Source: Felis catus
Lineage: Eukaryota
Length of the DNA: 64,000 nucleotides
Direction of reading: 5' to 3'
Assembly: GCF_018350175.1 (NCBI RefSeq)
Contig: NC_058368.1
Span: 6,696,001-6,760,000, forward strand
In this document: piece after piece, positions 2,925-30,522 of the stretch
Numbering within the stretch: position 1 is the first letter of the stretch
Layout of the letters: every line of letters starts with the position of its first letter
Notes under the pieces: generated by a model
Told to the model about the DNA's origin: nothing
What the model saw: the letters and a program-made list of their open reading frames with translations, nothing else
Database searches by the model: none
Made by a program: the position numbers and the translations under genes

Positions 2925-3146
2925 GAAAGCCGGTTAGTGGTTGGCAGGGCCTCAGAGAGACGGATGGGGGTTGGGGGGGTGGGGGGGGAGTAATGGCTAA
3001 AGGGTACATATGGTGTTTCTGTTTGGGGTGATGAAACCATGGCGGTGGGCTGCCCAGCTCTGCGAATATGCGAGAAGCCACTGGTTTGTACGCTTGAAGT
3101 ATGTGGATTGTGCGGTATATGAATTGTATGCCAATAAAGTAGTTAC
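2925..3146 (+). mobile_element. L1MB-like 3' end
   Basis: GGGTACA..GTTTCTGTTTGGGGTGATGAAA ... GAATTGTATGCCAATAAAG resembles an L1MB 3' UTR terminus. Confidence 0.75.
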
Positions 3147-3725
3147 GAAGACAAGGGGGAGGGGAGGGAGGGGGGCGGGGTAGTTCTTGCCCATTCTAGA
3201 CCTTCTCAAACTAGAGACAATTGGGGTGGGCATTCCACCCGCAGATTTGTCCTCCTCGTCTGCGTGGTGGGGTGGAAGCCTGGTTCCGGGGGAGTTAGCC
3301 TTCCTCCCTCCTGGGCAGTAGAGTCTGCGAGTGGCAAAGGGAACAAGGACTGGAATCTGCCATTGTGCCATTGCCCCTGTCACTGGAGGGTATGATTCTG
3401 ACTTCGGTCCTCAACAGCATGAATTACTTTTGACAGAGCATGACTTTTTCCACACCCCACCGCCACCCCCTTGACTAGAAATGGATCTAGACAATCCTGG
3501 GCACAGAAATTCTTTACTCTCACTCACTTGAGGGTGAAGTTGCTGTAGGTGTGAACAGCCACATTGTGATTGCCCACAAGACGGCAGCATTGTTATACTC
3601 TGATTCTAACGCACGGCCCTGCTCTAGGCTCTTCCCCAAGTACGGGAGATACACGCGGAATGGAGTCTAGTTTTTGGCCCCTCTGAAAACACATAAGCCT
3701 GAGTATTATTAGAATAAAGGAGGGT

Positions 3726-3927
3726 CTTTTTTAATGTCTATTTACTTTTGAGAGAGAGGCAGAGCGGGAACAGGACAGGGACAGAGAGGGACACACAGAA
3801 TCTGAAGCAGGCTCCAGGCTCTGAGCTGTCAGCACGGAGCCCGACGCGGGGCTCGAACCCAAGAACCTCGAGAACACAACCTGAGCTGAAGTCGGCCGCT
3901 TAACTGACTGGGTCACCCAACCACCCC
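3726..3927 (-). mobile_element. Can-SINE
   Basis: Reverse-complement SINE body and tail. Confidence 0.93.
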
Positions 3928-4197
3928 TTGAAACTAAATGAGTTTATTAAACTATCAGTTAGGAGAGAAAGAACTATGATTACTTAAAATTAAATGCTTT
4001 TCTTTATTAAACCACCTTATTTAAAAAGAAAGGGGGGGGGGAGTGACTTGTGAAATCAAGTTCCCCGCAAGAATAAAACCCAGATTTCATTCTGATAGTT
4101 GTTTTTAGATGGTATTGACCCGCCTGTCCCTTGGCACTTTGTCTTCCTGAAGAAGAAGGACCCCAAAATGAACTCATTTAGCCAAGAGCTAAACAGC

Positions 4198-4410
4198 AAC
4201 GTGGTGAAAGGCAGGAGCTCTGGGGACCAGAAGATCGGGACTTGAATTGCAGCCCCACCACCTCCTACCTGAGTGGTCTTCGCCTCCAGGTGCTTAATTT
4301 TCTCGTCTGTAGGAAAGAGAGAGTCTCCCGCCTCACTGAGTTGTCGTGGGGGATAAGTGGGGACTCGGAACAGTGGTGTCTAGCAGATAACATGTGGTCA
4401 ACAAATAACG
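4198..4410 (+). mobile_element. MIR relic
   Basis: Degenerate MIR core (TTTTCTCGTCTGTA..CCTCACTGAGTTGTCGTGGGGATAAGTG). Confidence 0.6.
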
Positions 4411-4459
4411 GACATTTACTCAGTAGATCTCCACTCTGGATGCTCACTAAACCTCCTGG

Positions 4460-5180
4460 GAAATGTTTACGAGTATGCATCGTTGCAACCTTATCCATAG
4501 CAGCCAAAAGATGGAAACACCCAAATGTCTATCAACAGATAAACGGATCAACAAACGGGATATAAGCATACGGCAGTATGATTCAGCCTTAAAATGGAAG
4601 GATATTTTGACACGTGCTACGGAGATGAACCTTGAAGACGTGACGCTAAGTGAAATAAGCCAGGCAGAAAAGCACAAATACTGTGTGATTCCACTCTTTT
4701 TTTTTATTATTTTTTTTCATGTTTATTTACTTCTGAGAGACAGAGACAGAGCACGAGCAGGGAGGGTCAGAGAGAGAGGGAGACACAGCATCCAAAGCAG
4801 GTTCCAGGCTCCGAGCTGTCGGCACAGACCCCGGCACGGGGCTCGAACTCGTGAACCGTGAGATCATGCCCTGAGCCAAAGTCGGACGCTTAACCCACGG
4901 AGCCACCCAGGCGCCCCTGTGTGATTCCACTCTTACAAGGTACCTGGAGTGGTCGAGTTCACAGAGACAGAAGGTAGAAAGGAAACAGGAGAACGAGGAA
5001 TTGGAACTTAATGGAGACGGAGATCCAGCTTTGCAAGGTCAGAAGAATTCAGGAGATGGATGGACGGTGGGGATGATCCCCAACCGTGTGAATGTACGTA
5101 ATGCCATAGAAGTGTACGTGTAAAAACGGTTAAAATGTAAATTTTACGTTGTCTGTGTTTCACCACAAGGTTTTAAAAGC
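4460..5180 (+). mobile_element. L1MB-like 3' fragment, split by a SINE
   Basis: AGCCAAAAGATGGAAACACCCAAATGTC, CTAAGTGAAATAAGCCAG and GGTTAAAATGTAAATTTTA are typical of L1MB 3' ends. Confidence 0.85.
4699..4917 (-). mobile_element. Can-SINE
   Basis: 17-bp TSD TGTGTGATTCCACTCTT at 4682-4698 and 4918-4934. Confidence 0.95.
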
Positions 5181-5413
5181 TAACGCTTACACATTTTCAA
5201 GAAACATGTTTAAAAAAAAAAAAGAAATTACCAAAAACAAGAGAAATCCACACTTCTGGGGTGGAACTCAGGCATCAGGGTAAAAGCTCCCCTAGGAATT
5301 CTGATGCTTTGGAAAGTCCTCAGATCGGATGGTCCTTGCCAGAGTGAAGCAGAGAAGGGACAGCCAGGGACAGCCTCTGGGAGTGGCTAGACTCTTCTCC
5401 AAACGACTCCTCT

Positions 5414-5430
5414 CCGCCCTCTGCTGGCGA
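5414..5430 (-). promoter_or_regulatory. Candidate CTCF site (reverse)
   Basis: Minus strand reads TCGCCAGCAGAGGGCGG, a full match to core CCASYAGRKGGCRS. Binding is not shown. Confidence 0.55.
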
Positions 5431-6474
5431 CTCGGGTTCTGACTCCCCTGGCCTCCCCGTTGCTAGGCAGCTAGGAGTCTGAGGCTGACAGGCGCTCAGG
5501 GCAAACACAAGGAGTCACCAAAATTTGGATAGTGGCCTTGAGGCCACAGGTGGTGAAAGCTTCCCTTAGGACTGAAATCTGGAAATGAGCCCGTTCGCCA
5601 GGCCTCGTCTTCCCCTCTGCAAGGCCTACTGTGGATGAAAACCAGTAGGTGCCGTCTAAAGGGTGGCTCGGCAGCCTGGACCTGGGAGTTTCCATGTCCC
5701 TGCGGGATGGTGCGAGCCGTCCTCTGCCCCAGGGGGACACAGGCCTCCCACGGAGCTCACCCTCTTGGTCTCTAGGTCCCGGAGCCATAAACTGACGCCT
5801 CCAAGCCTAGTGGCCTCCTGGGGCCCTGAAGAAGAGAGGTTAGCCCTGGGGTCAGGGTGACGTTTCTCGCCTGGGATTGCAATTACCCCAGAGTAGAGCG
5901 AGGCCCCAAGGAATGCAGGGCTGTGCGAGGAATCCTTCCGCAGGAGGTGAGCTTCGCCGCAGAGCAGCCGATGGGGCGTGCAGAACGGTGGGAGGAGGGG
6001 ACAGACCAGAAAGAAGTGCCTAATAATTCAAGAGTGACAGGGGCTACCCCCGGAGCCTCCCAGGGGTCTCTGCTGGGACTCTCACCTCCTGGCAAGTCTC
6101 CCTGCCACGTGAACCAGGTCGGAGTTGAGGCTGATGGGCAGAGTTCAAAGTTCCCTCCCAGATCCACCGGCATGCCCACACGCGCATAAACGCACACCCA
6201 TATCCACTCGCACCCGCGCAGGCGTGTATCCACACAGACACGCTCCACGAGCGGGAATCTATAGTCTTAACATATGCATTTGTATTATGCATGAATATGC
6301 ACCTTGGAGCAACTATGAAGCTATTCAAAACTAGCTCTGATTAGCTTGCGTTTTTATCCGGGAGCAGCAACGGTGTCACGGCTGCACAGAAACACCGCGA
6401 ACGGAAGCCGTCGGGGCTGGGTGGGGGGCGGGCCGGGGACGTCTGTACAAGATGCTCCGGGTACGTCTGGGCCC

Positions 6475-6845
6475 AGGCTATTGCTAATATGTAAACACCC
6501 AGCGCTGGAATTACCAGGAGGCAAAGGAGAAGGGAGCTCGTTAGATAAACCCTCTTGCTTACAGCCCCATTAGTTAATTAAATTATCACTTTACTGTGCC
6601 CAAAGCGAGCTGTAAGATTAATCCAAGTGTCACCAGCTTTATGGGGTCTGCGGGATCTTTACAAGCTTCCCCGGCTCCCAAGTGTCAAATTGGGGCTGTA
6701 TCGATAGATAAAGGGAAAATCAGCCTTGCAATTGCAGCCTTTCCCTCCGATATCTTTATACTGTGCTATAAAAGCCTATTATGCTTCATTTAAAGAGTGA
6801 AAATTGTTGACATCCCTTTTAGTTGCTAATCTTTAGGAAACACTG
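6475..6845. repeat. Ancient conserved-element copy A (MER121-like), putative enhancer
   Basis: Colinear similarity to 9884-10250; AT-rich and motif-dense. Family name is from recall only. Confidence 0.7.
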
Positions 6846-7295
6846 AGTGGCGTATTATTTGAAATGAATAACGCGCTCACTTTATTGGTGAGTGGTAAAA
6901 ATCTAATAGTTGGCAAAACAGCATGGTGTTTACTCTTCAAGATAGTTTATTAGCTTAAGCGTGGAGCGCATTCTCCCAGTCAACTCCAGCCCCCACCTGG
7001 GAGAGCTTGGCTTGGGTCACAGCACCCGAGGGGCCGTCTGGTCTGTTCCTGGCCTTCATTGTTCTCCTTTTTTGTTGTTGTTCTCTCGGTTCTTTCTTTC
7101 TCCCCTCCCTCCAGCCCCTCCCCAAAGGGCGCACATATTCATTTAACTGGAAAATATCCTGCGAGAGGCAAAAAAAAAAAAAAAAAAAAAAATGTTTGTC
7201 AAACGCTCAATTCTTAAAAGTCATAATTTGTCAAGGGCCACAGGCAGGGAGTTCAGGTTTGGGAGCAAGTCTGATGGGTCCGTGTGTCCATGCCG

Positions 7296-7297
<2 letters not shown>

Positions 7298-7335
<38 letters not shown>
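7298..7335. repeat. (CA)n microsatellite
   Basis: Direct dinucleotide run. Confidence 0.95.
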
Positions 7336-7336
<1 letters not shown>

Positions 7337-7899
7337 CAGGACTGGAGAGTAGAGGCTGGCCTACTGTGTGTCCCTCTACTCAGCTGTCTCCTGGCTGTCT
7401 CCTCACTCTCCTGGGAGCGCTAGAAAGGCCAAGGGCGGGGTCTTGCTCAGTTATATCCTTGGCGCAGAAGCACTGAATAAGCACCTACAGAATGCGGTGG
7501 TAAATGACTAGACTCTGAACCAGAGAAATAATTTTTGTTAGAACCTTTCGAGAACAGCCTTTTTTGTACTCATGGCACCAGAGCCTTTTTTCTCCAGGCC
7601 TCACCTGGGTTCCCAGACTGGTGATCTCCGTGCTTCCTCCTGGCCCAGGACCTCTGTGCTTCGATCGGTACGTACTTCACGCTGTGTGTCTATTTCTACA
7701 CACTCATAGCACACACATATGACACAGCTTGTCAGAGCAAAACACTCGACTATCCAAAGCAGGGGAGCACAGCTCTGGGTTCATTCATTAGCCCCTGACC
7801 CACCCTTCCTTTGTCAAGTACAACCACCTGTTTGTTGACAGACATAAAGCTATCTTGCCCACATCAGCCTTCACCTCTGCGGATATGGTTCCTGCTGTT

Positions 7900-8045
7900 C
7901 ACACTCCAGGGTCAGGTTCCCCAAGCTGAGTGGACACAGGTCTCTGCAAGGCGGCCCCTGGGGAGGGGCCCCAGGAAACAGCATTTTAACAAGCACACCA
8001 AGGAATTCCAAGTGTTCAAAATGACTTCGTCCAAACTGAGACCAC
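7900..8045. mobile_element. MER5-like hAT relic
   Basis: GGGGCCCCAGGAAACAGCATTTTAACAAGCAC resembles the MER5 core. Confidence 0.5.
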
Positions 8046-9883
8046 TTTTCTCCGGAAGCCCCATAAACACAGGCAGGATTTACGAGCTTGCTGTCAAGTT
8101 CCGCTTCGGGCTCAGAGCTCCCGGCAGGAAGGCCTTGGGCCCGAGGAAGCCTCTAGAGCCTTGGGGCCCGGCACACAACAGGACCCTCAATACTCAGTGC
8201 CACCCCCTGGAGTGGCCCGGCCTGCCCTTGAACTCGGGGACAAAATCACGCCAGTGTTGTGACACGCTGACGGGGTCTGGCCTGTCTCGCAGCCACTGGA
8301 GATTATGAAACAGCAAAGGGGAGTCAGGCCCCGAGTTCAAAAGGTGAGGCCTCCCAAAACAAGACCCCGCTGCTGGGCCTGCTGAACACTCAGGCCAAGA
8401 GAAGCTGCTTATCTCTTGAACTTTCAGCCTGCTAATTCCAACCAAGGTACATATCGCTTAGCTTTAGGCCATAAAAAGGAAAAAAAAAATCGTGTTTATC
8501 TGCTGCGGGCAAATCCAGTCTCTCCCAGATGACTCTTCTGTGGGACTATTTCCTTGTTCGTGTTCCCGTTTCTGCAGTCAAGGCCAGCCAAAGATCGAGG
8601 CTCGCCCAGGGGCCCGAGAACTTGGCCTTGTCAGGCAAGGCGGTCAGAGGGCCCTGGGCCCAGTTACCCGCAGCCTCGATTCAGGGTCACTGCCAAGGTC
8701 AGGGGCGGGTACGCAGAGGAGTATTGGCCCCCAGGGTCTCTGTTCCCTACATAATGGGGTGCTGGCTCGAAAGGCATTGGAAACATCTGAGTAAGTCCCT
8801 TGTTTAGGCACCTTGGGCCTCCGGGAGGTCCAGAAGGACTAATGCCTAAAGGGACCACCACCTGACTCTGGGTGGCACCCGGACCCCTGAGGGTAGCAGC
8901 CAGAGCCGAGACAGGCCAGGGCAAGGCCAGAGTCACAGAGCCCACCCCTGCCGCTAGCTGTTCCTCTTGGCCATGGTCACACATCCGGGTGCCAGCACTG
9001 CCTTGGAAGGGAGATGGGCTGGTGGCAAGAAGCAGATGTCACTTCATCCCAGTGGCCCCAGAGGGAAGGGACCCGATGGAGGCCGAGCCGGCTTCTGGCA
9101 GACTCACGGACTCTACGTTCGGGAGCTCCGCCCCGGCCCAGAGTGGATCCCAGGCCCGCAGGCCCGGCCCAGGCCTTGGCTCTCATACGATTTGTCTTTG
9201 ACTGAGACTCATTAGCCGGCGGACGTGTGGGAAGGGTCCTGTTCCTCTACTTATTCCTCAGCCCGACAGCCCCAGGGGCGCATCCTCAGAGAGGGTGGGC
9301 CCCGTGGCTGTGCTGCCCCAACACCAACCCGCTGAGCTCAGCCCTCGTGCCGCCCCCACCCTTGTCAAAGGCAGAAAAGACTTCTCCTGCCTCGTTCTGT
9401 GAAGGGAAACTCTTTGCTGGGACTGAGCCTCTCACATTCAGGCTACGTCCAGGGACCCTCCCTTTCAGCGAGGCACCTATGAGGAGTGTATGCGTCTTTC
9501 AGCTGCCTCCACCGATTCACAGTTTGGTAGTTTTATCGTCCTTAGGAGCAGCAATCTTTGGTCCCGTAAGACAGTCTCGTCAGAAAGCAGAGGCCCCGTA
9601 GGAGCTTCTTGGACAGCGTGGCATTCAAGGGCACCAGAAACGGTTTCAAAACACCCAGGGCTCCCCACTAAAGAGCTGGCGGGCCAGATCGGGCAATGGG
9701 CTGGAGGGAAGGCCCTGTTCCCTCGCACCTGCTCCTGGGTGGGGGACTTGCGTCACAGCCGCGCACTGGCAGTCGAGAAGGGAAGGGAGGGGACGGCCCG
9801 CAGAGATTCAGGGGGTACATTTGAGATGTCGTACCGTCTCCTCACTCAGCAGATAGCAGCATCCACTTGGGGCACTGATTCTG

Positions 9884-10250
9884 CCAGGGCATTAATGATG
9901 CTGTAAAATAATAAGGCTTGAGACCGCCCGCACGAGAGCGAGCACTTGATAAAAGGGAGATTTACAGCCACATCCATCAATTTAATTATCTTTTACTGGG
10001 GTTTAAACTTAGTGGTAATACTAATCTCTCTTCAGTGCGGTTTACGGGATCCATGGACACTTTACAATTGTCCTCTATCCAGAAGTGTCAAGTTATGGCC
10101 ATATTGATAAAACACTAGCATAAATGGGAGGTGAGACACCCCAGAACTACTTAATACGCTTTTTACTGCACCGTAAAAGCCTATTACTCTCTGATTTCAG
10201 GTGAAAATTTGTGGCCAATAATCTGAGTTGATAGTGTTTCGGAAACAATT
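9884..10250. repeat. Ancient conserved-element copy B (MER121-like), putative enhancer
   Basis: Colinear similarity to 6475-6845 at offset 3403-3405. Confidence 0.7.
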
Positions 10251-11834
10251 CCCCAGATAATAAAAGTTGCCTCCTTTGCCTTGTTCGACACCCCCACCCC
10301 AGCCCCAAGCCCGGGCCCAGCCTCCTCCACGGACTTGACCATAAAAAGCAGGGGCCACGGGGCCGAGGTGGGGCACGCGCAGCCCATCCACAGACTCTGC
10401 TCGCTCCTGGGGCCTGGGGCCAAGCGAGGCAGGTCTGGGGGGGCCTCTGGCGGCCACACGACAAAAGGAAACCACACTGCCCACGTCCTGTGCTGCTCAG
10501 CTCACCGGTTTCCTGCAGAGGAATAATTCCTGCCTTTGCAGGATGTGCTGCTCTACACTTTTCAGACAAGAAGAGGACAGTGTAGCCCAGGCCATTGGCC
10601 CCTAGAAACTGCCTCCTGGAACGTCCCTGGCCAACCGTGTGGCCACCGTGAAGGGATCTACCGCCAATATTGTGCTTCTGAGCCCAGTACCCCGCCCCCC
10701 CCCCCAAGGAACCACCTCGCTCACAGAAGTACCTCCGTTTCTTTCTAATCCGCTCCCTTGTGCTCTGAGGCCCATCAGGCTTCCCTAATGCCCTTGGAGT
10801 GGTGGTCAACTTGGGTTCTCCCTACGGAGAGCACAGCGTCAAAACCTTTGGTACTTTCTCACCCAACTTGCTTGGAACTAAGACCGTCGGGCATTCCAAG
10901 GCAGCCTGGGGCTCATTTCAAACAGGATCCCTGTGGGACAGGGGGACCGCATCAGAGAACCTTGCTGGTTCTGGATAGAAAGGGGAGGTGGCCTGTGTCC
11001 ACCTCTCAGCCCCTAGAACCCCCCCTCCCCTCCTCAGGGCCCTGCGTCACTCAGAGGCTCCCAGGGGCTGATTCAACCTGCACTGCCTCAAGCTCCAGGC
11101 AGGCGGCCTTGAGCCCACATGATGCTTTTGTCTCCTTAGAAGAAGCACCCCTTTTCTCAAAGATTTCAGCCCTGTGCCCCATGTGCAACTCTGATTGCCA
11201 GGACCCAGGCCGGAACTCAGCCCCAGTGGAACTGCTGACTCTAGACCATAGACACTGAGTTTCCCAGTGTAGAAAGTCCGGCTTGAAGTCCTTCCTCCAG
11301 ATCTGCCTTTCCCTCCCCACCCCCACCCAAGGTCACCTGCTTCCTGGTTCTACTTCTCTGCCTCCCTCCTGATCTGAATAGGGAATTGTGGCCCCAGGGA
11401 GGCAGGGACAGAGGGATAGGGGAGGCAGGGACAGAGCACACTGCAATCCCGCCAGCCAGCTCACGGAGGACACCCCCTCCCCCCGTGTCCTGGCTCCTAA
11501 GACAACAGCACCCACTGTCACCACGGCTCCTACAAACGCTCAGTCCTGTTGTGGGCACAAAACACTTTGGTAACCATGAACCCTAATACTTTCAAAACAG
11601 GGGGACTCGATCAACACAAATGAGATACTATCCTTGTGAATCAGAGATAGCCCGGGCTTGGAGGCCGAAGAAATCAGCACTGTGACCGTCGGAGTCACCG
11701 TTGTTTGATCTGCGCAGTGGAGCTGACCCCCTCCAAGAGACCTTACGAAGACCGCATGAGCGTGTAGTACCCATGGAAGCTCTTTGTAAACTGTACAGCG
11801 CTGTAACTATGACATCAGCAACAACTGTACCTAA

Positions 11835-12015
11835 CAGTTACTCACCACGCTAAGCATTTCGTATATATTAACTAACTCCTTTAAATAATCCCCCGAGCCC
11901 CACGAGGGAGGCCTTATTCTTGTCCCCGTCGTACTGATGCAGAAACGGAGGCTGGGAGAGGCTGATGGAAAAGGCAGAGGCGGCCAGCTCTAGTGTCCAG
12001 GCCCTTAACCGCGCA
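11835..12015 (-). mobile_element. MIR relic
   Basis: GTCCCCGTCGTACTGATGCAGAAACGGAGGCTGGGAGAGG is a reverse MIR core. Confidence 0.6.
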
Positions 12016-12768
12016 ACGCTGTGCCTGGAGTTGTGTGGGAGGGGCCGTGCAGCTGGGAAAACAGAAACGCGGTCAGGGTGGCCAGCTGGGCTTGTGGGTC
12101 GCAGGAACGCAGGGTCAGGCTGGCATATGACGCCATCAGGGAGAGGTGAGAGCCATTCCTCGACCAACGTGGCCTTCATAATCAAAGCACGGACACAGTA
12201 CTTTTCAAAGCTTCGGCTTTCCCCAAAGCTGAACCAACAGCATAACTAGATACGAGCCCAGGCTCCCCAAGTCCTGAAGCTGGTGTCGGGGAGCGTGAGG
12301 TGGGAGCTGCGAGGACCCAGCAAGGCAAGGTAAACTTGTCCGAGGCCACGTTGCACGTGAGAGGCACCTGAGGGACCAGAAGATGCCTCTACGCGTCTCC
12401 CAACTCGGGACCTGTTCCTCGCACCAGATCAGCCTTTGCAAGACGCGAGCTGCGTCCTGCATCAGAACTATCTGGGTGTCTGGGTTCAAATGTAGATTCC
12501 AAGGACACCTTCATTTGCTGCTGACCAGGAATCTGCATTTTAAACAAATCCCCCTTGTTCTCAAGGAGATGGCCTATGCCCGATGCTATCTCTGAAGGTC
12601 TGTTTTTGCTACACAGATGGGGGGACAGAGGGGCTGGGACTCTTTTTTTTTTTTTTTTAGATGTCGCACAAGAAAAGAGACTGAGACACCACAGTGAGTT
12701 AAATCTACCTCCTAGGCGTCACTGCTGCTTCTGAACTTCCAGATGTGACTTTTAAAACTGCCTTTCCT

Positions 12769-12965
12769 GGGCCGCCTGGGTGGCTCAGGCGGCTAAGCGT
12801 CCGACTCTTGGTTTCGGCTCAGGTCATGATCTCACGTTTCATGAGTTTGAGCCCCGCATCGGGCTCTGCACCGTCAGGGCAGATTCTCTCTCTCGCTCTC
12901 TCTGCCCCTCCTCTGTCTCTCAAAATCAATAAAAAATAAAAGTTTAAAAATATCAATAAAAAAGT
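12769..12965 (+). mobile_element. Can-SINE (older type)
   Basis: SINE head with CTCTTGGTTTCGGCTCAGG, CT segment, A tail. Confidence 0.92.
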
Positions 12966-15490
12966 AAATAAGACCCACCTCTCCTGTTTTACTTTTTTCC
13001 CCCAAATCCTTTTCCCTGTGTCTTTTCCCCTCTCTCTCCAGGCCTAACCCCATCCAGTCCAGATTGTTCAGTGCCTGTGACAAGCCCCCACTCCCCTTGA
13101 GAAGCATCTGCAAAACTTGGGTGTGCTTTTGTCCTTCCAAATGCAAGTTGGAAGATGGAATCTGGCCAGAGCCCGGGCCCGGAGCTGGGGAGGGGGTGAG
13201 CTCTTCAGCCTGGACCCGGGAGCAAAAGCCTGAGCCAGAGGTGGCTTGAGGCATTTCATGGAGCAACGGTCTGGATCACCATGCGTAGTTGGGGGCACAT
13301 GGCAGAATCCCTGACTAATGGTGGAAATACCACCACTACCACTCAATACTCCGCGAGTTTACAAATTTGAGGAAGGGGCGTAGCTATAATAAATTAGGCC
13401 CGCGCGACATTCTCACGTTCAGGGGAGTTAGAGAGCAAATGCGCTTAGAAGAGCGGTTGAATGATGAGACCCTGCCCTGAAGGAAGGCAGACTTATGGGC
13501 GCGGAGGGATGAAGGTAAGCAGATCTATCTTGACAAGTGTTCTCGGGATCTGCTGGACAACCTTCCAGAACAACGCGGATGACAAAGTAGCCCCCCTTCA
13601 TGTGTCGCCGGGGCCAACCATAATGAATTCAACAGCTGTCATGAATTGCCTGGATGTGTGCCTACCATTGCCAGGATAGACAGAGGTCTCAGGGCCCACC
13701 CACGTGACCCGACACCAATGGGGCAGCAAGGATCAGAAGGGCCGGGGAAGTTAGGGGGAAGGTGAGTAGCATGGGTATTGCTGGAAAATCAGAGAAACTT
13801 TTGACTCGGGAAAGAACTCTTCCCTCTGTTTCCAAACAAAAAAAAAAAAAAAAGAAAGAAAGAAAGAAAGAATTTTCTAGTGTTAAAAGAAGTATCCCAT
13901 TTCCAGTAATAATGACTAGAGATCAAAAGAACATCCTCAAAGATTGTCAAGGCAATTATAGCAGAATGTCAACAATGGCTGGGAATCAAGTCGAGACAAT
14001 TTCTCTACCTGAAAATATCAATGTTCTAGCGATGATTTCTTTGGCCATAAATTATTTTCGTGCACCCGGCTTTTCCTCTTTTCCGTTGTACGTATTTTAG
14101 AGACAGAGTCGCTCGGACGGGCGCAGATCGGAGCGCTCGGATAACTTCAATCTTTAAAACATACGTTTTTTTGTCCCACCCCCAAAATAACATATACATT
14201 TTTTTTTTAATTCTAAAATTGTTCAAGAGAATTAGTAGTTGGCTTTCAGGGGCAGGAATGGCTTGGGAGGTCCGGATGGCTCTACAAATGGTGCGGAGGA
14301 CTCCAGGCAAGGGAAGAAAACGGCGTCAGATCAAGCCCATGTTGTTTGCCCGTGTGCATGGAGGCAAGAAGTCAACTCGGGATTCCGCCCTATCTTATCC
14401 ACCCAATCTCATGAGGTGGTAAATCTGTCCTTTGATCTTGTCAACAATGTGGAAAGTTGGAGACAGCTGCCACCACCCCTCGTCAGCAGGGCCTCACCAT
14501 TCCCTCATAAAACATTTATGAAACCTGTAATAAACGGGTCTGATAAGGAAGAGGGCTCAAGATTTCAAAAGTCAGCAGCTCCACTGAAAATGCCCTCTCT
14601 ACCTCCAATGTTCCTTTATTTGAAGAGCAAACACAAACTATCAATTCCCACTGGCTGTAAAGTTTCTGAGTAAAGAGTTTCACCAAACCCTGAGATTAGC
14701 AGAATGTGTTTGGAGTCTTACCCATATTCAGAAACCACCTCCCTTCCCCTGCCCAAAATTCACTGCACTGATATGCGTGGGCACAGAGGGCTCGGGCAAG
14801 ACAAAGGCCTGGGCCGGAGGGATAATAAAAGCCCAGTCACGGAGAAATAGAGAGTCATTTGATGCAACAAAGTAAACTCATAGTCTATAATTGAGTTTAG
14901 AAAAAGGAGAGGAAGGAGTAGCGTTTTAGTAGCACATCATAAAATATGACTTTGGAAATATTTATTTTAACCTCTGTTTTATTTTCCGGGGAAATTAATT
15001 GAGCTCTCTGAGTTTAGCAGAAGTAGACAGAGTCCTAACTCTTCCCCTACTCTCCGCGAATTTTCTTCGTTGACTTTCTTGGGCAAGTGTCAGATGAGTT
15101 GAGCTGCTTAGGCCAGAGGCCTTCAAAGAATCAAGAAATAAAGAAAGCCACGAGAAAGAGAGGGAAATACGCTACACGTGGAGGAAACTCTTCAGGGGAA
15201 CACGATTTGCTTCGGGGCCGGGAGTGTTGTTTGACCCATAGGACAGGAGGGGGAAATGTATTTGTTGGATGAGGGACAGGTGAATGAAAGAAAGACTGAG
15301 CCATGGGACTGACTTTCGAGGAGAGGTAAACAGCACACTTGAGTGCAGAGAGAGAGAGAGACAGAGAGCAAGAGAGGCGGAAGCCCGCATACCACTGGAC
15401 ACATTTGTCTACCTTGTACCTTGCATTCAAGGTGAAACAGGTGACAGCACAAGGATATTTGAATTGATCAGATTTAAAAAACAATGTCCA

Positions 15491-15700: not shown

Positions 15701-17089
15701 TTCCGGGTCTTTCTGTTTTTCTCCCCCGTGGACCATGATGAAGTGACGAGAAAGGAGAAGGCGGGCCCTCTGGGGGGCCTCCTGGACGAACCGCGCCGGG
15801 CTGAACAGCGCCTCAAAGAGAAGCATAGATCCCCGAGCTGGGAGAGAGAGACTTCCCCTTGGGCCCACCTCCTCAGCAGCCACCTGCTGGGAAGCTCGGC
15901 TCATTCTCCACGCTCGCTTCGTGGCTTAACGTAAAGTAAATTCTTACACAACCTTACACACGGGCCCTGGAGTGGTGTGAGTGTTCTGTGTGTCCTCTAC
16001 GTCGATTCCATGACACTTTCCTGTGGTCGGGAGGGTGGAGGTCACCTTGACCCAACCTTGTCAAGCCCCTGCCCCATCTCCGGGCACCTGGAGCTAATGA
16101 GAACGGCAGTCCAGGGCGTAGTGCTCAAGGATTCAGACCTAGAGGCCCTCTCACCCCCAGGATCAGTGTCGGTGCCTATTTAAGCCGTCCGGAACAACAG
16201 CCAGCAGCTGGGCTCCAGGGGCAGCTTCCGTATTCCGGTCACTGGCGGGGAGGGTACCTGGGCCGGCGGAAGAAATAGAGACGAGGCTCGGCTGTAGCTG
16301 AGGACCAACGATACGCAGCCGGCAGCGTCCGAAACAGCCCAGCGTGGCAGTCATCACCGCCGGTCCACTGTGGTCTGGCTAACGCTCACCGAGGTAGGCA
16401 GAAACGAACCGATCATCCTACCGTTCTGTTCAGGTTCAGATCTGAAGGGTCCCCAGATGCTTCCGGAACAAGGGACCAGAGCTGGATTTTCGCGGAGAAT
16501 TCTGCCCGAGTGAGCAGCGGTCTTTCACGAGGCCCCAGCAGACGTGTCCTCCCGTCTGCTGCTGTCTCCGGGCCCGAGAACTCCAGCGCCGTGAGCCACC
16601 ACCTCGGGGAGGAGAGGGGACTGGCCTCTCAGGGAGGGCTGTGTCGGGGAGAGGGGTAAGGAGGAGGCCGCCCCGCAGAACAGGGGCGCAGGGGCCCGCA
16701 GGACAGGGGGCGGCCCCAGCACTTTCCGCGAGTCCAGAGGCAGGGAAGCGCGATGGCGAAGGGCACGTTCTCTGTCACCTGCCCGCGCTCCCTGGCTGGC
16801 TCCCACACCGACTACCCTTGTGACCCGGAGCGTCAAACCCTGCGCGGTTAGCCATCATCGTCGTCATTTGGCCGGTACACTTGCTTCCTGGTGCTCAAAA
16901 TACATAGCTTCTGATCTGTATACACTTTTCACGCCCACAAAACACTTCGTGTGAAGCTGGGTTTTGCCCTGGAGGCTGGCATGTGATGCTCCTCCTGCCG
17001 ATTCTCATCCACTCGTACGTCTCCCGCCTCGATGCCTCAAAATTGCAACTCTCTTTCTTACGGTGTTGCCCATTTAATGGTCACAAAAA

Positions 17090-17688: not shown

Positions 17689-17905
17689 GGGTGCCTGGGT
17701 GGCTCGGTTGGTTAAGCATCACCTTTGGCTCAGGTCACGATCTTGTGCTCCGTGAGTTCAAACCCCACATCGGGCTCTGTGCTGACGGCTCGGAGCCTGG
17801 AGCCTGCTTCGGATGCTGTGCCTCCCTCTCTCTCTGCCCCTCCCGCTCTCTCGCTCTCTCGCTCTCTCTCTCTCAAACATAAATTAGCATAAAAAAATTT
17901 TTTTT
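17689..17905 (+). mobile_element. Can-SINE
   Basis: Degenerate TSD beginning AAAGTTGGGA on both sides. Confidence 0.94.
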
Positions 17906-17934
17906 AAAGTTGGGACACTGGGTATTTGTGGAGT

Positions 17935-18328
17935 GGAAAGGTAAAAGCAACCTAAATGTCCCCTGGCAGATAAATGGGTAAACAAATGGGTAAGCCACAC
18001 AGTGGAATATTCTTCAGCCTGAAAAACAGAGGACACTTTGAAACAGGCTACAGCACGGAGGAGCTGTAAGAAAAATAAGCCCGTCACGAAAAGACAAATA
18101 CTGTGCGGTTCCACTGATGCGAGGTCCCTACGGAAGTCAGATCCATAGAGACAGAAGGGAGGGTGGTGGCTGCCCGGGGGCGGTGGGCAGGGGTTTTGCC
18201 AAACGAAGAGTCCTGGAAATGGGTTGCACAACAGTATGGATGTCCTTCACCCTACTGGCCTGTATGCTTAAAAACGGATAGGCTGGGAAAGGCTATGTTA
18301 GGTGTGGTGTATCACAATTAAAAAAAAG
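17935..18328 (+). mobile_element. L1MB-like 3' end
   Basis: GCAACCTAAATGTCC, AAAAGACAAATACTGTG and terminal TATCACAATTAAAAAAAA. Confidence 0.82.
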
Positions 18329-18639
18329 TTTGAGGGTTGGGTGCCCGCACCCTCAGACACGGCAGGCTGCCATCCCCCACGTGCGGGGAGGAAGCTCAGT
18401 GTGCTCCCTCCCCCCCCACACCCCTCCGCCAGGCTGTGCCCTGAGGGGTTGCCCTGGCCTCCCCGCAACAGCTCAGGGGCAGGTGCAGGGCTGTGTCTGC
18501 CCAGAGGAAGGGCACCCTTCCCTAGTTTGGACAAAGATGCCATTGGTTCCCCCGACCCCGTGCCCAGCGGCTGTGTCTGCCCAGAGGGGTGCCTTCCCCC
18601 AATCCCACGGGCTCCGCGTGGGGTCAGGGGTGCCCTGCG

Positions 18640-18765
18640 TGTCTATTTCTCCCCTCACCTTGCTGGGAATCGCCCAGAGCGGGGACCATGCTTACTTTCC
18701 TTCCTATTCCCAGCTGCTCGCTCGGGGCCCTGCACACAGTCAGTGCTTAATAAATACTTGCGGAA
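18640..18765 (+). mobile_element. L2 3' end relic
   Basis: GCACACAGTCAGTGCTTAATAAATACTTG matches the L2 terminus. Confidence 0.65.
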
Positions 18766-20217
18766 AGGTGGAGAGAAGGAAGGCAGGGGAAGAAGGAGAG
18801 AGAGGGAAGTGGAGGAACGTGGATGTGTCTCAATGTCTAGTTTATGTGCATCTATAGGGCCCGAGAACCAAGGGGGTTCTTCTGGGGTCTCCGAACTTGC
18901 CGTGGATTACTGGGGTTTTATTTTATTGCTTAATGTGCCCTCCCTCATCTCACAACCCAGGATTCCGAGATCCGTGGCGGGCCGGAGGGGGATTCCACTT
19001 GCCCGGGACACTTCAGAGTCATGCTCTGACTGCACTGGGACGCAGCTGCCCCCATGGTCAGCGTTCACGACAAACGTCCAAGCGGCCGCAAGACCCTTGT
19101 CACCCTACTCCCACCGGGGCCCTTAGAGATGGCTATTCCTCCCTTGCTTCCCAACGGCTAGTGCAAAAAACTCAAAAGGCCCATCTCCGCGGAGATGATG
19201 CGCATTTCTCCTTCCCTCCTGCCTCCCACCCCTGCATCTCCTCCTCTCTCCCCTCCTGGGCCTCCCACATCTCTACAGCCCACCCTTGGTGGGCCCCATT
19301 ATCAGCAGAAACTGTTCCCAGGCGATAAAGCAGCTCAGGTCAGGCAGAGGGGAGCTTTGTGGACCTGCTGAGGCGAGGGGATTTTCCTAGCTCGGTCACC
19401 CTGCTGTTTGCCCACCTGTCACCTCAGCTCTGTGACAAGGCTGACATGAAAGGGGGGCGGAGGGCGCATTTTTGCCAGGAGAGGTAGTAGGCTGCTGGCT
19501 ATAAACACGCCCATTCAGTTTTAGATTGCAGCCCAGGGCTGGCCACAGGGCCCAGTCCCCGGTTAATTCGTAACCTGTGAGCACCACTCTTGAGGCAGGT
19601 GCAGAACCTTGGTTTCGCCCCGGATCTTTTCTTCCCACTCCCCCACATGGGGCCAAAAGTGAAGTCTTGGAGAGCGCCCCCGGGCCAGCCGCTGTGGCCC
19701 CTGGCCTGCCCCGGAAGGGTCTGCTCCCTCAGGCCTTGGTTCTCCAGCTGTGGCTGGGAGCGGTCCCCGGGCACGGGTATGGCTCAGGGCCCGTCCTCTG
19801 ACTCTGCAGGAGGACGGGGCATCAGGATCGAGCCTGGTGGCTCCGCGCTGCAGAAAAGAAAGGGCACCTTGAAGATTAAGGGGCGGTGGCGGAGAGCTGA
19901 GCCCCATCAGCTCATCGGCAGCTCCACGCACAGCCCCAGACATACTTCCTGGGGGAAAGGGGAGACGCCGGTTACCAGGGCAAACGGATCACACGGCTGC
20001 AAATCCAACTTTCGGAGTCTGTTTTCTTAGATACACAAAGAGTGAGAAGCCAAAGAAAGGAAAGCCAGGCAGATGTCTGGAAGCCAAGCGCGGCGTGCTG
20101 GGGTTGGGGTGCAGGCCATGAGAGCCACAGGGGAGGGCAGAGGGCTCTCTGATGCAATCCAGGGAGACCAGGTGCCAAGGGCTCCTCCTGGAGCGCCCAC
20201 CACCCACCCAGAGGCTG

Positions 20218-20236
20218 TGACCAGCAGGGGGCAGCA
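20218..20236 (+). promoter_or_regulatory. Candidate CTCF site (forward)
   Basis: TGACCAGCAGGGGGCAGC, full core match. Confidence 0.55.
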
Positions 20237-20974
20237 GAGAGCCCAGGGGCAGTAGGAGGCTAGGGGAGGGGGATGCTCCTGGCTTCTTTGGATAATTCCT
20301 GCCTGTCTTTCCTCGTGTCAATGGTCCACTTTCCCCTCCTTTTCCTCCTCTTCCTTGTTCCTTGTCGTCTGGTCGTCCTTTTAGGTTGTGCTGTCAGGGT
20401 GACAGCCAGACCCCCGAAAACCGTGTGCTTAGTCATCACAGCTGGGAAAACTGTCTCCCTAGAGAAGACCTCACTTGACATGGGCTCACCGAGAGCCTTT
20501 CTGAGAGCCCTGGGGGGGCCACGATCCCCGTAGACCACAGGCTCCTCACCTCAGGGCGACCAGCCAGGCACAGGATGGCTGGAACGGCCCCGTTGGCGTG
20601 AAAGAGCCCCACAGGCCGTCGTGATGAGCATCCTGCTGTCTACCGCCTGCCCCTTGGCTCCCAACAATCAAGGAAGAAGAGAAAATCAATGCCTTTCCTG
20701 TCAATCATGCCAGTAAGTGCTGCCAGGGCTTTGGAATCACATGAAAAAGCGAGAAGTTGCTACATATAATGGCGTGGGCACAGAAGCCATCGGGGGTTGT
20801 GTGTATATCACAGAGCAGTCCTTGGGAACAGTTGAAGAAATCGGCCACTTAGATGACACGTAATTGGTTGAAATGACAGGTTCCTAAAGGGCACCAGGTC
20901 CAGAGTGGACTTGGCTTGCGGGGCGGGGGGGGGGGGTGAAGGGTAGGGAGGGGGGTTTCCAGGAAACTGCGTCT

Positions 20975-21450
20975 TTGAAATATCACATGCACCCTGAAAA
21001 ACTCATGAATCACAAGATTAATTCTCACCACGTGAACCTGCCCGTGTACCCTGTACCCAGACTACAGGACGGAGCGTGGCCAGCTTCCCAGAAGTCCCTA
21101 GTGCCTGTTCCACTCATTCCCTCCCAAGGGGACCAAATACCACACGAGCTTTGCCTGCTGTTCAGTTTCGTCCACACGGCGCGTTCTCTTTTGTGCCTGC
21201 CCTCTCTCGTTCAACGTAACGCGTGCACGGTTCATCCGTGCGGTTGTATGTGCTTGTCATTCATTCAGTCCCCAGTGCTGAATGGTATGCCACAGTGGGA
21301 CCGTATCACAGCCTATGCACCCATTCCGCTGGTAGTGGGCGCAAGGGTTGTTGATGGTTTGGGCCATTACAGGCAAGATGTCTGTGTCGAGACTCGTAGA
21401 GGGCGTATGTCCACACACCTGTTGGGTACACAGGGACGTGAGGAACGAAC
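20975..21450 (-). mobile_element. Old L1 (L1ME-like) 3' fragment
   Basis: Reverse L1ME-like 3' UTR features (..GGTTCATCCGTGCGGTTGTATGT..); highly diverged. Confidence 0.6.
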
Positions 21451-24400
21451 TAGATGCGGGGGAATCTATAAGGCTCTTTTTCTCTCTGAGTTAGGCAGGC
21501 CATGAGTATGAGAAGGGAATGTTTGTACTGGCCTTTAAGGGAAGTGGGTATAAAATCCAGGCAAGAGGGAACATGCTACTGAAATGCAGGCTGATGGCTC
21601 GTAAAGTCTCACGGCCCCCCACTGGAGCCACGCAGGTAGCTGGTTGGCAGAAATTGTGTGGGTGTGGGAGCCGGGGCAGCACTGACTGGGGAGGGAGAGA
21701 GGCACTGGTGTCACTGGGCTGGCAGTGGGTCACTTCCCCCGTGGGACCCCCCTCCCACGAAGCAGGAAGCACAAGGAGGTCTGAGAATGACACCAACGCC
21801 CCCAGCCCTCACCTCCTGGGTCCTGGAGGCTGCGGGCATTAGTCTGCACCTCCCTCTCTGGCCTCCCACCCCCTTCCCAGACAACAAACGATTTCCCATT
21901 ACACTCCGGCTGGCTGGCCCTTCTCCCCCAGCGCACGCCCTGGGCATCGCCGGTGAACCTGAGATCAGCCGATCCCGATGGAAAGCATGGTCCTTTAAGA
22001 CCCTTGCACCCCGTGCAAGTTCCCATAAAGGTCCTCCTCGTTCTTTGTAAATGAAAAAGGAGCTAGTCTCCGGTAGGAAGGGCGCGTCCCTATGAAGATC
22101 AGGAGTCCTCGGAGGGTCAGAGGAAGGGGTGGGAGAAGAAGGAGAAAGAGGCAATGCTGGGGGCACATCGCAGACACAACCCCCTCTGGCCACCTTAAGG
22201 CTCAGCGCGAACGACAGCAGCCAGGTTGCAGGGCGTCCGCGGAGGTGGCATTCTCACACCCGGTGACAGCTGCCTGCTGGCGAAGTCAAAGCAGCTAAGG
22301 CCACTCTATCATGTCTCGTGTGTGTGAGCCCCGCGCCCAGTTGGAACCCGTCCGCTGAGCCGTAGTGGGGCATAAACACGGGGACAGCTGAGGCCACGCG
22401 CTCTCTGTTCCCAGCAGCTCCCACAAGACCATCGCTGAGTCAGCCCATGCTCTGCAGGTGGCCCTCCTCTAGGCCACACAGTGTGGCAGCGAGGCCAGCG
22501 CGGGGAGGGAGGGAGGGATGCTGAAGGATAGACCGTTCTGGAACCTTAAAAGCCAAGTCACAGGGCAAGGTGGGTTCTGAGGAAAATTGGGGCCTGATCT
22601 CACAGTGGGGTGCGGGGTCCCCGTCCCCTGGCGCTGTCCTGAGAGATCGGTTAGTCACACGGGCTCCACCATCCCTCGGCGGAGTGTGCCCAGATCCCCC
22701 GTGGGAACACGGGCCGTACAGCGTCTCTCGGGGAGACGCTCCCCCCAGTTTCTTCCCCATCAGCTGCGACCGCATCAGAGTCCTTGGGCTGTGGAGTTTA
22801 TGGGTCACAGAGGGGCCTTCTCTGCACTCACACTGCTGTAAAGCACCAGGCACACTGTCGCAGGACCCAGACTGTCCCCGTAAACAGCCGAGGTGATGCC
22901 GAGGCAGGCTTGTACCCAGCACCCCCCTTTCTCCAGGGAGGAAAGAGACGTTATCTAGCTCATCAAAGTGGGGCCTCTCAGCAAGAGCTCAGTTATTATT
23001 TAATGAGATCCTTAGCACCGGCAACCACAGGATTAATAAAAATTGAGGGTAATAAAAGAAATCACAGAGGAGGCTAATGCTATCAACTATGTAATAAAAG
23101 GGAGGAAGCAGGCTTCATCTGCAGTGACAAATCCTCTTTGTCTCGCAAAGCTCAGAAACAAGGCCCGGGAGGAAGGGACCACTGGGCAGCTTTAGAAGAA
23201 CGCTGGTCCCAGCAACCACGACTCAGGGGTGCCCTTGGCTGTGCAGGAGCTGGAAGGGCTCCCTTCCGAGTGAACTTGGCGGCGGAAGAGGGAAGGGTCG
23301 TCTGGTCTCGTCCACGCTTAGACCTTCCACACCCCCCACCTGGAGGACGATGCTTCTGTCTCTCCAGCTGGGTTCGTGGTGCCGCAGCCAAGGCCCTGGG
23401 GGTGACTGTTCCACGTCACCACTGCCGTGACGCGGCCGGGGGCACTGGGGCCCGGAGTCCGGCGGCCGGCCTCTCTGTGATCAACCCTGGTCACCCTTCC
23501 TCTTATCTGCTCACAGCAGCCAGGAGGACACCCACTGCACCAAGTGGGGCCCCAGCATCCGGCTCCGTTTCGTCAGATGTCCCGGAGCCTCCCCGGCGGG
23601 GGCTGTCCGGCCTCTCCAGAGGTCTACACAGCGGGGCCCAAGAAGAATGACAACAGCCAGCCGGTGGAGTGTGGGACGAGAGGCGGGGGGGAGCTGGAGG
23701 GTACGCCCGGGACACTCTTGCCCAGATCGGCCCTGGTCCCCTCTCTCGCCCTCATGCAGCAAGCCTTCGGGCCAAAGAGGTGCCAATTCCCGAACCCGGT
23801 GGTGGCACCTCCGAGTCCTGCCTCCTGCACGTGGGAGGGGGTGGGGGTGGGGAGCAGCTCCTGAGGTGCATCCAGGAGGGAAAAGAGGTCGCTGTGAAAC
23901 ACTATTGTCCTCTCGCCCTACACGTTACTAACCCTAATCCTAACCTGACTTCCCGGTGACACAAGTGTGGCACTGAGGCCTGCTTGGAGCTCAGTGTGAC
24001 CCACTGTGGCCTCCCTGTATTGGGGAAAGAGCCCTGTGCCCCCTGGAGCCATAGAAAAAGAGGTTGGCGGGCAGGGGGGAGGGGTTTTCCCAGCCCCAGC
24101 CTGGATGAACTAACCTCAAGGGCAACCCAGTTAAGTCAGAGGAAGGAAAATGCGGGTTCGCGCAGACCCCAGATCTGGCAGGGTCTAGGAAGTGGCCAAT
24201 TAGGGGAGGAGGCGGGAAAACAGACATGGGGGGAGCCGGCTGGGGGGGGGTGGTGGGAGCGGGAGGCATGGGCGGCGGTGTCTCTGTGGCTAAGGGGCAC
24301 GCATGAGATGGTTGGATGGGACAGACGGCCAGAGAGGCATATTCACTCGGCACGTTTTGTTGAGAGTGGCCCCCCTGTAAAGCCTGGGTGGTTCTGGGGG

Positions 24401-25945: not shown

Positions 25946-26291
25946 TTTTCTTTTCTTTTTTCTTTTCTTTGCTTTGCTTTTCTTTTCTTTTCCTTTTTCT
26001 TTTTCTTTTCCTTTTCTTTTCTTTTCTTTTTCTTTTCTTCTCTTTTCTTTTCCTTTCCTTTTCTTTTCTTTTTCTTTTTCTTTTCTTCTCTTTTCTTTTG
26101 CCTTTCTTCACTTTTCTTTTTCTTTTCTTTTCCTTTTCTTTTCTTTTCATTTCCTTTTCATTTTCTTTTCTTTTTCTTTTCTTTTTTCTTTTTCTTTTCT
26201 TTTTTCTTTTTCTTTTCTTTTCCTCTTTCTTTTTCTTTTTCTTTTCTTCTCTTTTCTTTTCCTTTCCTTTTTTTTTTTTTTTTTTTTTTTT
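25946..26291. repeat. (TTTTC)n polypyrimidine tract, an expanded SINE tail
   Basis: About 345 bp almost purely C/T, abutting a minus-strand SINE. Confidence 0.95.
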
Positions 26292-26480
26292 AGAGAGAGA
26301 GCCCATGTGCTTGGGTGTGAGAGCTGGGGAGGGGGCCGAGGTAAAAGCAGGGAGAATCTTAAGCAGGCTCCATTCTCAGCACAGAACCTGACGCGGGGCT
26401 CAGTTTCACGACCCTGGAATCATGACCTGAGCCAAAATCAAGAGTCGGGCGCTCCACTGACTGAGCCACCCAGGTGCCAC
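26292..26480 (-). mobile_element. Can-SINE (older type)
   Basis: Reverse head CTGAGCCACCCAGGTGCC and GACCTGAGCCAAAATCAAGAGTC. Confidence 0.92.
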
Positions 26481-30324: not shown

Positions 30325-30522
30325 TTTTTAATGTTTACTTAGGGGGAGGGAGGGGAATAAGTGGGGGAGGGGCAGAGAGTGAGAGAGACGCAGAATCCGA
30401 AGGCGGCTCCAGGCTCCGAGCTGTCAACACAGAGCCCGACGCGGGGCTCGAACCCACAAACCGTGAGCTCGTGACCTGAGCCGAAGTCAGACGCTTGACC
30501 GACTGAGCCACCCAGGCGCCCC
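30325..30522 (-). mobile_element. Can-SINE
   Basis: TSD TGTTTAAAGGTAT on both sides. Confidence 0.95.

Follow-up and report, generated by a model that had tools for sequence, protein, structure and literature searches.

Two old non-coding copies 3.4 kb apart in a SINE-rich mammalian window, possibly the paired LTRs of one decayed retrotransposon

Two similar non-coding segments lying 3.4 kb apart on the same strand raise the question of whether they are relics of a single mobile element or regulatory modules whose motif blocks and spacing have been held in place by selection. The window, meaning the whole 64-kb stretch that was analyzed, consists of mammalian non-coding DNA in which tRNA-derived SINEs abound. 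Within it, blastn aligned copy A (6559-6842, + strand, 40% GC) with copy B (9962-10247, + strand, 38% GC) at 183/293 identities (62%, E 9e-18), and the pair reached a Smith-Waterman score of 51 vs. 10.7 +/- 1.3 (maximum 16) in 500 dinucleotide shuffles, giving a z of about 30. These results bore out the colinear, same-strand similarity at offsets of 3403 to 3405 that a sequence-only reading of this DNA had described, the shuffle comparison being a check that it had itself proposed; its four hand counts of matches (23/29, 45/69, 23/28 and 18/22) were all correct, and GTGAAAATT was found where it had placed this word, at 6797 and 10201, the sole two occurrences in 64 kb. At offset 3403, 90/151 positions matched across 6559-6709 of copy A, and at offset 3405, 59/93 matched across 6750-6842, as compared with a background for unrelated offsets of 25% +/- 3.5% (maximum 36%). 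Net offset drift thus amounted to 2 bp over 284 bp, with a single offset valid for 151 bp. Spacers between shared blocks measured 50/50, 47/49, 15/14 and 15/16 bp, in line with the earlier remark that they had diverged in sequence at nearly constant length; the scrambled middle segment of A (6710-6749, + strand) is a case in point, matching B at chance level (7-14/40 at every offset tried) with hardly any change in length (47 vs. 49 bp separate the blocks). The longest word common to both copies, TAAAAGCCTATTA (6769-6781 and 10174-10186, + strand), trails a TATA-like box. A and B are genuine old non-coding copies of one another.

The limits of the unit proved to be narrower than had been claimed. 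The sequence-only reading described two paralogous elements of ~370 bp starting at 6475 and 9884; the paralogy stood and the length did not, since the first ~85 bases (6475-6558) align at chance level, leaving a unit of ~285 bp. Comparing 6400-6558 with 9803-9961 yielded a score of 8, a value matched by 820/1000 shuffles. Its observation that the flanks are dissimilar held, with flank scores equalled by shuffles in 820/1000 and 547/1000 trials, and for larger flanks of A vs. B the observed score was reached by 78/300 and 187/300 shuffles. Similarity between the copies therefore ends abruptly on both sides of the ~285-bp unit, and no other colinear block was found across 3000-13500 at offsets of 3250-3560. 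An upstream extension (6360-6540 vs. 9630-9800), beaten by 6/300 shuffles under +5/-4 scoring, was non-colinear and GC-rich and was set aside. With respect to copy number, no third copy was detected in the 64-kb window, the best unrelated 370-bp window scoring 16, and the next nhmmer match over the window beyond A and B had an E of 3.9. A metagenome pattern scan with the best shared block returned 2 loci, both attributable to chance and with dissimilar flanks, and a protein-space search with the 67-aa open frame of copy B, serving as a proxy for orthologous DNA, gave zero candidates. The pair sits in a SINE-free interval (4918-12769), which is unremarkable because another such interval (17899-26269) is equally long.

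We consider about evenly poised the proposal, the best of the readings weighed here, that A and B are the two LTRs of a single ancient, decayed LTR retrotransposon. Reverse transcription makes the two LTRs of an element identical. In each LTR, U3 holds the element's own enhancer and promoter, with factor-binding words in clusters and a TATA box, and R and U5 come next; plus-strand DNA synthesis is primed by a polypurine tract located directly 5' of the 3' LTR. Several features of the locus recall this plan. A, as the candidate 5' LTR and upstream copy, and B, as the candidate 3' LTR and downstream copy, have the same orientation and lie 3.1 kb apart, as in a provirus-like element, with similarity stopping at the repeat edges. 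Both are AT-rich islands (38-40% GC) within surroundings of 50-58% GC, as inserted DNA would be. A polypurine-tract-like run, AAAAGGGAGA (9951-9960, + strand), ends 1 bp ahead of B; it precedes B only, the matching place upstream of A carrying CCCTCTTGC instead. Over 64 kb, the + strand has just 13 purine runs that contain AAA..GGG and reach 10 nt or more, and such a run would end 0-3 nt upstream of 0.08% of window positions by chance, a figure to be read with the tract having been sought post hoc as one among about four hallmarks. Both copies terminate in CA (...GGAAACA), and TG is present in A alone, at 6556-6557, 2-3 bp before the aligned start. A candidate short terminal inverted repeat, TGCTTAC vs. 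TGTTTCC as the reverse complement of the end, matched at 5/7 in A and 4/7 in B on a post hoc reading by eye. The TATA-like box, TATAAAAG in A (6767-6774, + strand) with the counterpart CGTAAAAG in B (10172-10179), sits some 70 bp before the 3' end of the copies, on the strand of the purine tract.

The direct repeat, sharp limits, purine tract, CA ends and TATA-like box are all present, and we surmise that they add up to an LTR element. Such an element would lie wholly on the + strand: its 5' LTR would span about 6556-6842, the interior would take up 6843-9950, the polypurine tract would occupy 9951-9960, and the 3' LTR would cover about 9959-10247. The two LTRs would have drifted after insertion to 62% identity, any coding remnant of the interior would have decayed past recognition, and what looked like motif blocks with fixed spacing would be the residue of the LTR's own regulatory layout. 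The sequence-only reading had overlooked this LTR-type layout.

Other hallmarks of an LTR element gave negative or weak results. We take TGGCG, located 6 nt past the end of A, to be a weak match at the expected start of a primer-binding site; by eye, nothing beyond TGGCG after A matches tRNA-complementary motifs. The best candidate for a target-site duplication was 3/4, equalled by 2163/3000 random position pairs; decay is expected at such an age. A clean TG start at the aligned boundary was absent from both copies, and no poly(A) signal was found inside them. The interior (6843-9950, + strand; 3.1 kb), which is GC-rich and includes a run of A (7170-7192) and a CA repeat (about 7300-7336), contained neither a SINE nor a protein-family remnant and did not resemble the 3 kb past copy B. 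None of its 68 ORFs (30 aa or longer) matched gag, protease, RT, RNase H or integrase families (0/68). Non-autonomous LTR elements such as MaLRs are expected to be without gag/pol remnants. A further point against the LTR proposal is the word GATAAA, found outside the aligned unit at 6544-6549 and 9948-9953 (+ strand, offset 3404), 9-10 bp upstream of both copies, which would be unexpected if the flank of A were host DNA and that of B the interior; its presence at both upstream edges argues slightly for homology extending past an LTR-type boundary.

This shared GATAAA, directly upstream of both copies, is among the observations favoring a different origin, namely that A and B are paralogous enhancers, silencers or factor platforms derived from an old local duplication unrelated to any transposable element, with purifying selection on blocks and spacing and decay of the neutral parts. 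Their AT-rich content, with homeodomain-like, GATA-like and TTTAY words, would also suit such modules; the words in the shared blocks may resemble HOX/CDX, MEIS, CUT and GATA sites. We nevertheless find this origin rather doubtful. A tandem duplication of 3.4 kb is disfavored because, at an age of 62% identity, neutral parts would still align, as do other old repeats of the window at 63-66%. The window has a high GC content and a dense load of SINEs (28 copies), and shows no developmental gene, no homeodomain motif and no Pfam family at cut-off in its 300 longest stop-to-stop ORFs (at least 81 aa), the best sub-threshold matches being DUF7735 (18.4 bits), DUF4519 (20.2) and Thi_PPkinase_C (19.6) as compared with cut-offs of 27. 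Both of the positions taken as degenerate (ATCGAT/ATTGAT and TTTATGG/TTTACGG) are CpG-to-TpG, the commonest neutral change, and the purine tract at the edge of B is left unexplained. Prior odds are also poor, given that PMC3531063 reports a human paralogue for just 464/4351 ultraconserved elements, mostly arising from whole-genome duplication and not from duplication in cis. An LTR-type layout, with a polypurine tract adjoining the downstream copy, CA ends and a TATA-like box, would account for the pair more simply than enhancer duplication does.

The strongest observations in favor of a duplicated module concern the distribution of matches and their spacing. Matches between A and B were clustered (runs test z -3.33, permutation p 0.0002) and their variance in 10-bp bins was elevated (permutation p 0.005); among repeat-pair controls in the window, 1/102 was as clustered and 3/102 as over-dispersed. 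SINE-type pairs with drift as small, or with an ungapped block as long, numbered 0/61. In neutral simulations, alignment over at least 270 bp with drift of at most 3 was seen in 0/1500 runs at 0.1 indel events per substitution and in 18/1500 at 0.05. Consistent with these simulations, an ungapped stretch of 151 bp would be improbable under the neutral human-mouse indel probability of 0.0446-0.0607 per site stated in PMC1326222, our arithmetic on these rates placing it at 1e-3 to 8e-5. Clustering, kept spacing and simulations fit constraint better than plain decay. The indel argument for selection is weakened because the pair was picked for aligning, and two other comparisons stand against it. 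An old pair at 55019-55159 and 57346-57488 (66% identity), presumed neutral and the sole age-matched control in the window, had 2 indel events in about 155 bp, a density like that of A and B, and cheap-gap alignment gave 3.75 gap openings per 100 columns for A and B vs. 3.59 in controls. The existence of this second same-strand old pair, 2.3 kb apart, also implies that such relics are common in the window. With regard to the earlier suggestion of selection on a rigid architecture, the block pattern and kept spacing are indeed unusual (1/102 and 0/61), but selection as such does not follow, as the indel density is similar to that of the old pair and the cheap-gap rate equals that of controls. 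Nonetheless, match clustering and spacing relative to window controls leave room for selection on both copies, and we tentatively entertain the possibility that the two have been kept as matched, spacing-constrained factor-binding modules, either as co-opted LTRs or as a cis-duplicated enhancer. On this selection reading, binding-site blocks may be preserved, with spacers free in sequence and fixed in length.

Several functional or transposon-type assignments were considered and set aside. A coding reading found no homeodomain motif, no Pfam family at cut-off among the 300 longest ORFs, no match for the 8 ORFs of copy B and no codon periodicity; a structured non-coding RNA found no Rfam match at gathering thresholds and a weak RNAalifold consensus; and a DNA-transposon origin via terminal inverted repeats found none common to both copies. 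It was also conceivable that A and B are duplicated promoter/first-exon units of unannotated non-coding transcripts, starting past the TATA-like box, with the GTGAGT donor at 6889 closing the exon in A. For A, this proposal draws on TATAAAAG at 6767-6774, on the strong donor-like TTG|GTGAGT at 6889 and on an acceptor-like pyrimidine tract with CAG at the 5' edge, but copy B has no donor, no acceptor tract and no clean TATA. Differences between the copies were without codon periodicity (17/18/21), Rfam was empty at gathering thresholds with copy B matching only at E of at least 3, and the RNAalifold consensus reached -20 kcal/mol for 293 columns. Based on these results, we regard promoter/exon units as very improbable.

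Lastly, A and B might be independent copies of a dispersed ancient repeat, either a short non-autonomous element such as MER121 or another low-copy Dfam family, that came to lie 3.4 kb apart by chance, whether neutral or exapted. The resemblance to MER121 was a suggestion of the sequence-only reading, and the family itself is reported to have been described by Kamal, Xie and Lander in 2006. In favor of a dispersed repeat, both copies are "full length", with an identical sharp start and end, as in short mobile elements. MER121 is moreover a known family whose substitution rates are reduced; PMC2689173 gives 865 blocks for it and counts it with the repeat classes that are likely under purifying selection, and PMC5753468 lists it among hAT-type elements and CNE families. 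Against it are the lack of a third copy in 64 kb and the rarity with which two of the roughly 900 genomic copies of such a family would fall within 3.4 kb in the same orientation. In addition, A and B share no terminal inverted repeats and lack both an A-rich tail and a pol III box, and no transposase remnant was seen among the 8 ORFs of copy B; the purine tract is again left unexplained. We thus deem a dispersed repeat decidedly unlikely.

The consequences differ among these readings. If A and B are a decayed LTR pair, the locus belongs to ordinary genome archaeology and its "motif architecture" would be a fossil retroelement promoter. If both copies are constrained across mammals, they would constitute a natural side-by-side pair of paralogous regulatory modules, in which selection on binding words could be separated from selection on spacing, and they might represent co-option of both LTRs of one element. 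More generally, for sharply bounded same-strand pairs separated by a few kb in mammalian DNA, LTR hallmarks and a repeat library should be checked first.

When compared with known systems, A and B resemble UCNE paralogues, as described in PMC3531063, in that only a short core is alike and the flanks do not align. According to the same text, UCNE paralogues occupy mostly separate loci beside paralogous developmental genes as a result of whole-genome duplication, unlike A and B, which are separated by 3.4 kb of a GC-rich region dense in SINEs where no developmental gene was seen. The 151 bp without length change at about 40% substitution, past the neutral geometric expectation, recall the indel-purified segments of Lunter, Ponting and Hein 2006 (PMC1326222), which compares orthologues genome-wide, while here a single paralogous pair was chosen for aligning, with the attendant ascertainment bias. 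Similar to MER121, A and B form an old non-coding unit, a few hundred bp long, whose paralogous copies are preserved in blocks; MER121 is, however, dispersed, with 865 blocks in PMC2689173, as opposed to two adjacent same-strand copies here with no other in 64 kb. Compared with other repeat pairs of the window, match clustering and spacing in A and B are more orderly. Unlike ancient mammalian LTR relics that retain both LTRs, of the ERVL-MaLR type and similar, A and B are without a recognizable primer-binding site, target duplication, pol/gag remnant or clean TG start. Like such relics, they are direct repeats of a few hundred bp around a non-coding interior of a few kb, with a purine tract adjoining the 3' repeat, a CA end and a TATA-like box near the 3' end, and their identity of 62% is comparable with the 63-66% seen in other old repeats of the window.

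A same-strand blastn comparison aligned copy A (6559-6842), the upstream of the two repeats, with copy B (9962-10247) at 183/293 identities (E 9e-18). The sequence-only reading had described a paralogous pair of ~370 bp at 6475-6845 and 9884-10250; the repeat itself is real, as local alignment of these two segments scored 51 vs. 10.7 +/- 1.3 (maximum 16) for 500 dinucleotide shuffles, but its length is ~285 bp and not ~370 bp. All four of its hand counts, its positions for GTGAAAATT and its spacer lengths were exact, while its first part, 6475-6558, had a score equaled by 820 of 1000 shuffles. Similarity between the downstream flanks was no better than in shuffles (547/1000; 187/300 for larger flanks), and scanning diagonals across 3000-13500 at offsets 3250-3560 yielded the A/B blocks, one G-rich low-complexity match and nothing else; the repeat unit is thus ~285 bp with abrupt edges. 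None of the other 370-bp pieces of the window, on either strand, scored above 16 against copy A, a two-sequence profile found no third copy in the window (next match E 3.9), and metagenome and protein-space look-ups were empty or gave chance matches. Just outside the unit, the two copies have GATAAA in common, 9-10 bp upstream, and between this motif and the repeat start A carries CCCTCT (6550-6555) and B GGGAGA (9955-9960), six consecutive base-by-base complements that are not reversed; we know of no mechanism for such a change, and it is probably due to chance. One CpG-island-like window (6001-6500) lies directly upstream of copy A.

Internally, 6559-6709 matches at offset 3403 (90/151) and 6750-6842 at offset 3405 (59/93, with a short 3404 stretch around 6797), and no offset lifts the scrambled middle, 6710-6749, above chance level. 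Both copies have 38-40% GC vs. 50-58% in their surroundings, and transitions account for 45 of the 95 differences. The RNAalifold consensus of the pair was weak (-20 kcal/mol), Rfam matched copy B only at E >= 3, and we found no inverted terminal repeats common to A and B. The differences lack periodicity by codon position (17/18/21), and copy B's eight short ORFs matched no Pfam family. We consider it highly improbable that the copies are duplicated promoter or exon units.

We excluded a tandem duplication of 3.4 kb with the young age that 62% identity would mean under neutrality, since neutral old repeats of the window still align at 63-66% and nothing outside the 285 bp is alignable; therefore, either the unit alone was copied, as mobile elements behave, or a much older duplication occurred in which only the unit was constrained. 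We surmise that A and B may be the 5' and 3' LTRs of one LTR element read on the plus strand. Consistent with this, they are direct repeats 3.1 kb apart, both end in CA, a TATA-like box is located ~70 bp from the 3' end, and a TG 2-3 bp ahead of the start of A yields a weak 7-nt inverted repeat. In addition, the purine run AAAAGGGAGA stops 1 bp short of copy B, with no counterpart before A; 13 runs of this kind occur on the plus strand of the 64 kb and one abuts 0.08% of positions, a figure for a feature sought after the fact as one among about four hallmarks. On the other side, the search for a primer-binding site gave nothing past TGGCG, no target duplication was found for the pair (2163 of 3000 random pairs equaled the best candidate), the 68 interior ORFs held no gag/pol remnants, the copies contain no internal poly(A) signal, and the GATAAA upstream of both copies counts slightly against an LTR edge at that point. 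A 59-aa open frame at 7604-7780 (minus strand) gave a sub-threshold zf_RING-like Pfam match (23.5 bits; cut-off 27), which falls in Cys-rich low complexity next to TG/CA-rich DNA and is probably spurious.

Mammalian genomes abound in full-length relics of old LTR elements, and another seems to be present in the window: a second plus-strand pair, C/D (55019-55159 and 57346-57488), is 2.3 kb apart with 66% identity and 2 one-base indels in ~155 bp. C/D presumably resembles the 3' portion of LTRs of the MaLR (MLT1) type, and its copies may be the two LTRs of a further decayed element into which two SINEs have inserted between them. Conserved elements duplicated in cis, on the other hand, are rare: PMC3531063 gives 464 of 4351 UCNEs with any paralogue, mostly from whole-genome duplication. 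Based on these considerations, we give an LTR origin of A/B about an even chance.

Duplication of a regulatory module not derived from a transposable element is an unlikely origin in our estimate. As regards constraint, matches between A and B fall into clusters: in permutation tests that left out the scrambled middle, p was 0.0002 for runs and 0.005 for 10-bp variance; among 102 other repeat pairs of the window aligned identically, 1 was as clustered and 3 as over-dispersed. Against 61 window pairs whose BLAST identity was 58-68%, almost all of them SINE copies, offset drift was 4 vs. a control minimum of 7 (0/61 as small) and the longest ungapped block 153 vs. a maximum of 107 (0/61 as long); identity in aligned columns was lower than in all 61 controls, yet spacing was best kept. 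From the neutral human-mouse indel probability of 0.0446-0.0607 per site given in PMC1326222, we calculate a probability of 1e-3 to 8e-5 for the ungapped 151-bp segment. Neutral simulations were aligned in the same way: with 0.1 indel events per substitution, 0/1500 runs aligned over >=270 bp with drift <=3, and with 0.05, 18/1500 did. Arguing against constraint, a cheap-gap alignment gave 3.75 gap openings per 100 columns vs. 3.59 in controls, whose SINE indel counts are inflated by unstable low-complexity parts and subfamily differences; C/D, the only age-matched non-SINE pair with an old-LTR look, has the same indel density as A/B; pairs get noticed by aligning, which biases toward few indels; and the two "degenerate" motif positions that the sequence-only reading lists are each a CpG/TpG difference. 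These data are suggestive of constraint, short of establishing it. That both copies are under selection today, whatever their origin, is possible and rather doubtful; our other gradings concern origin and not present selection.

Among other old repeats, four fragments of one older family (4483-4696, 17937-18115 and 53829-54031, plus strand; 48278-48370, minus strand; 63-73% pairwise identity) presumably resemble the 3' end of L1 ORF2. A search of the window with 11780-11960, which resembles a MIR element in reverse orientation, returned a single weak 30-nt partner, showing that neutral repeats of MIR age align poorly pairwise in the window.

With no homeodomain signature in six frames and no Pfam family at the curated cut-off among the 300 longest stop-to-stop ORFs of >=81 aa, the window is mammalian non-coding DNA, GC-rich and SINE-dense; no coding sequence was found in it. 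It has 0 N, 42-60% GC across 2-kb bins and a CpG observed/expected ratio of 0.51. A ~200-bp tRNA-derived SINE, presumably of the carnivore CanSINE type by its head and tail, has 28 copies (e.g., 26971-27178 and 48727-48937) at 66-90% identity to that at 1554-1760; the tRNA-like head of one (tRNA, 30433-30517, minus strand) was the sole Rfam match of the window at gathering level. CpG-island-like 500-bp windows (GC > 0.55, CpG o/e > 0.65) with no recognizable gene occur at 16001-17000 and scattered at 28001, 32501, 34001-35500, 40251-41250, 42251 and 44501, and a long low-complexity TTC/CTT-type tract at 25900-26300 (plus strand) reads as a 285-aa open frame rich in F/S/L.

Being GC-rich and SINE-dense, the window differs from the AT-rich gene deserts typical of developmental enhancer clusters. 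As for MER121, which the pair had been said to resemble, PMC2689173 and PMC5753468 describe a dispersed family of 865 blocks with reduced substitution rates and group it with hAT-type elements, respectively. It is distinctly unlikely that A and B arose as independent copies of some old dispersed family, whether MER121 or another: compared by description, the two copies are adjacent and on the same strand with no other in 64 kb, and do not look like chance neighbors from a family of MER121's size.
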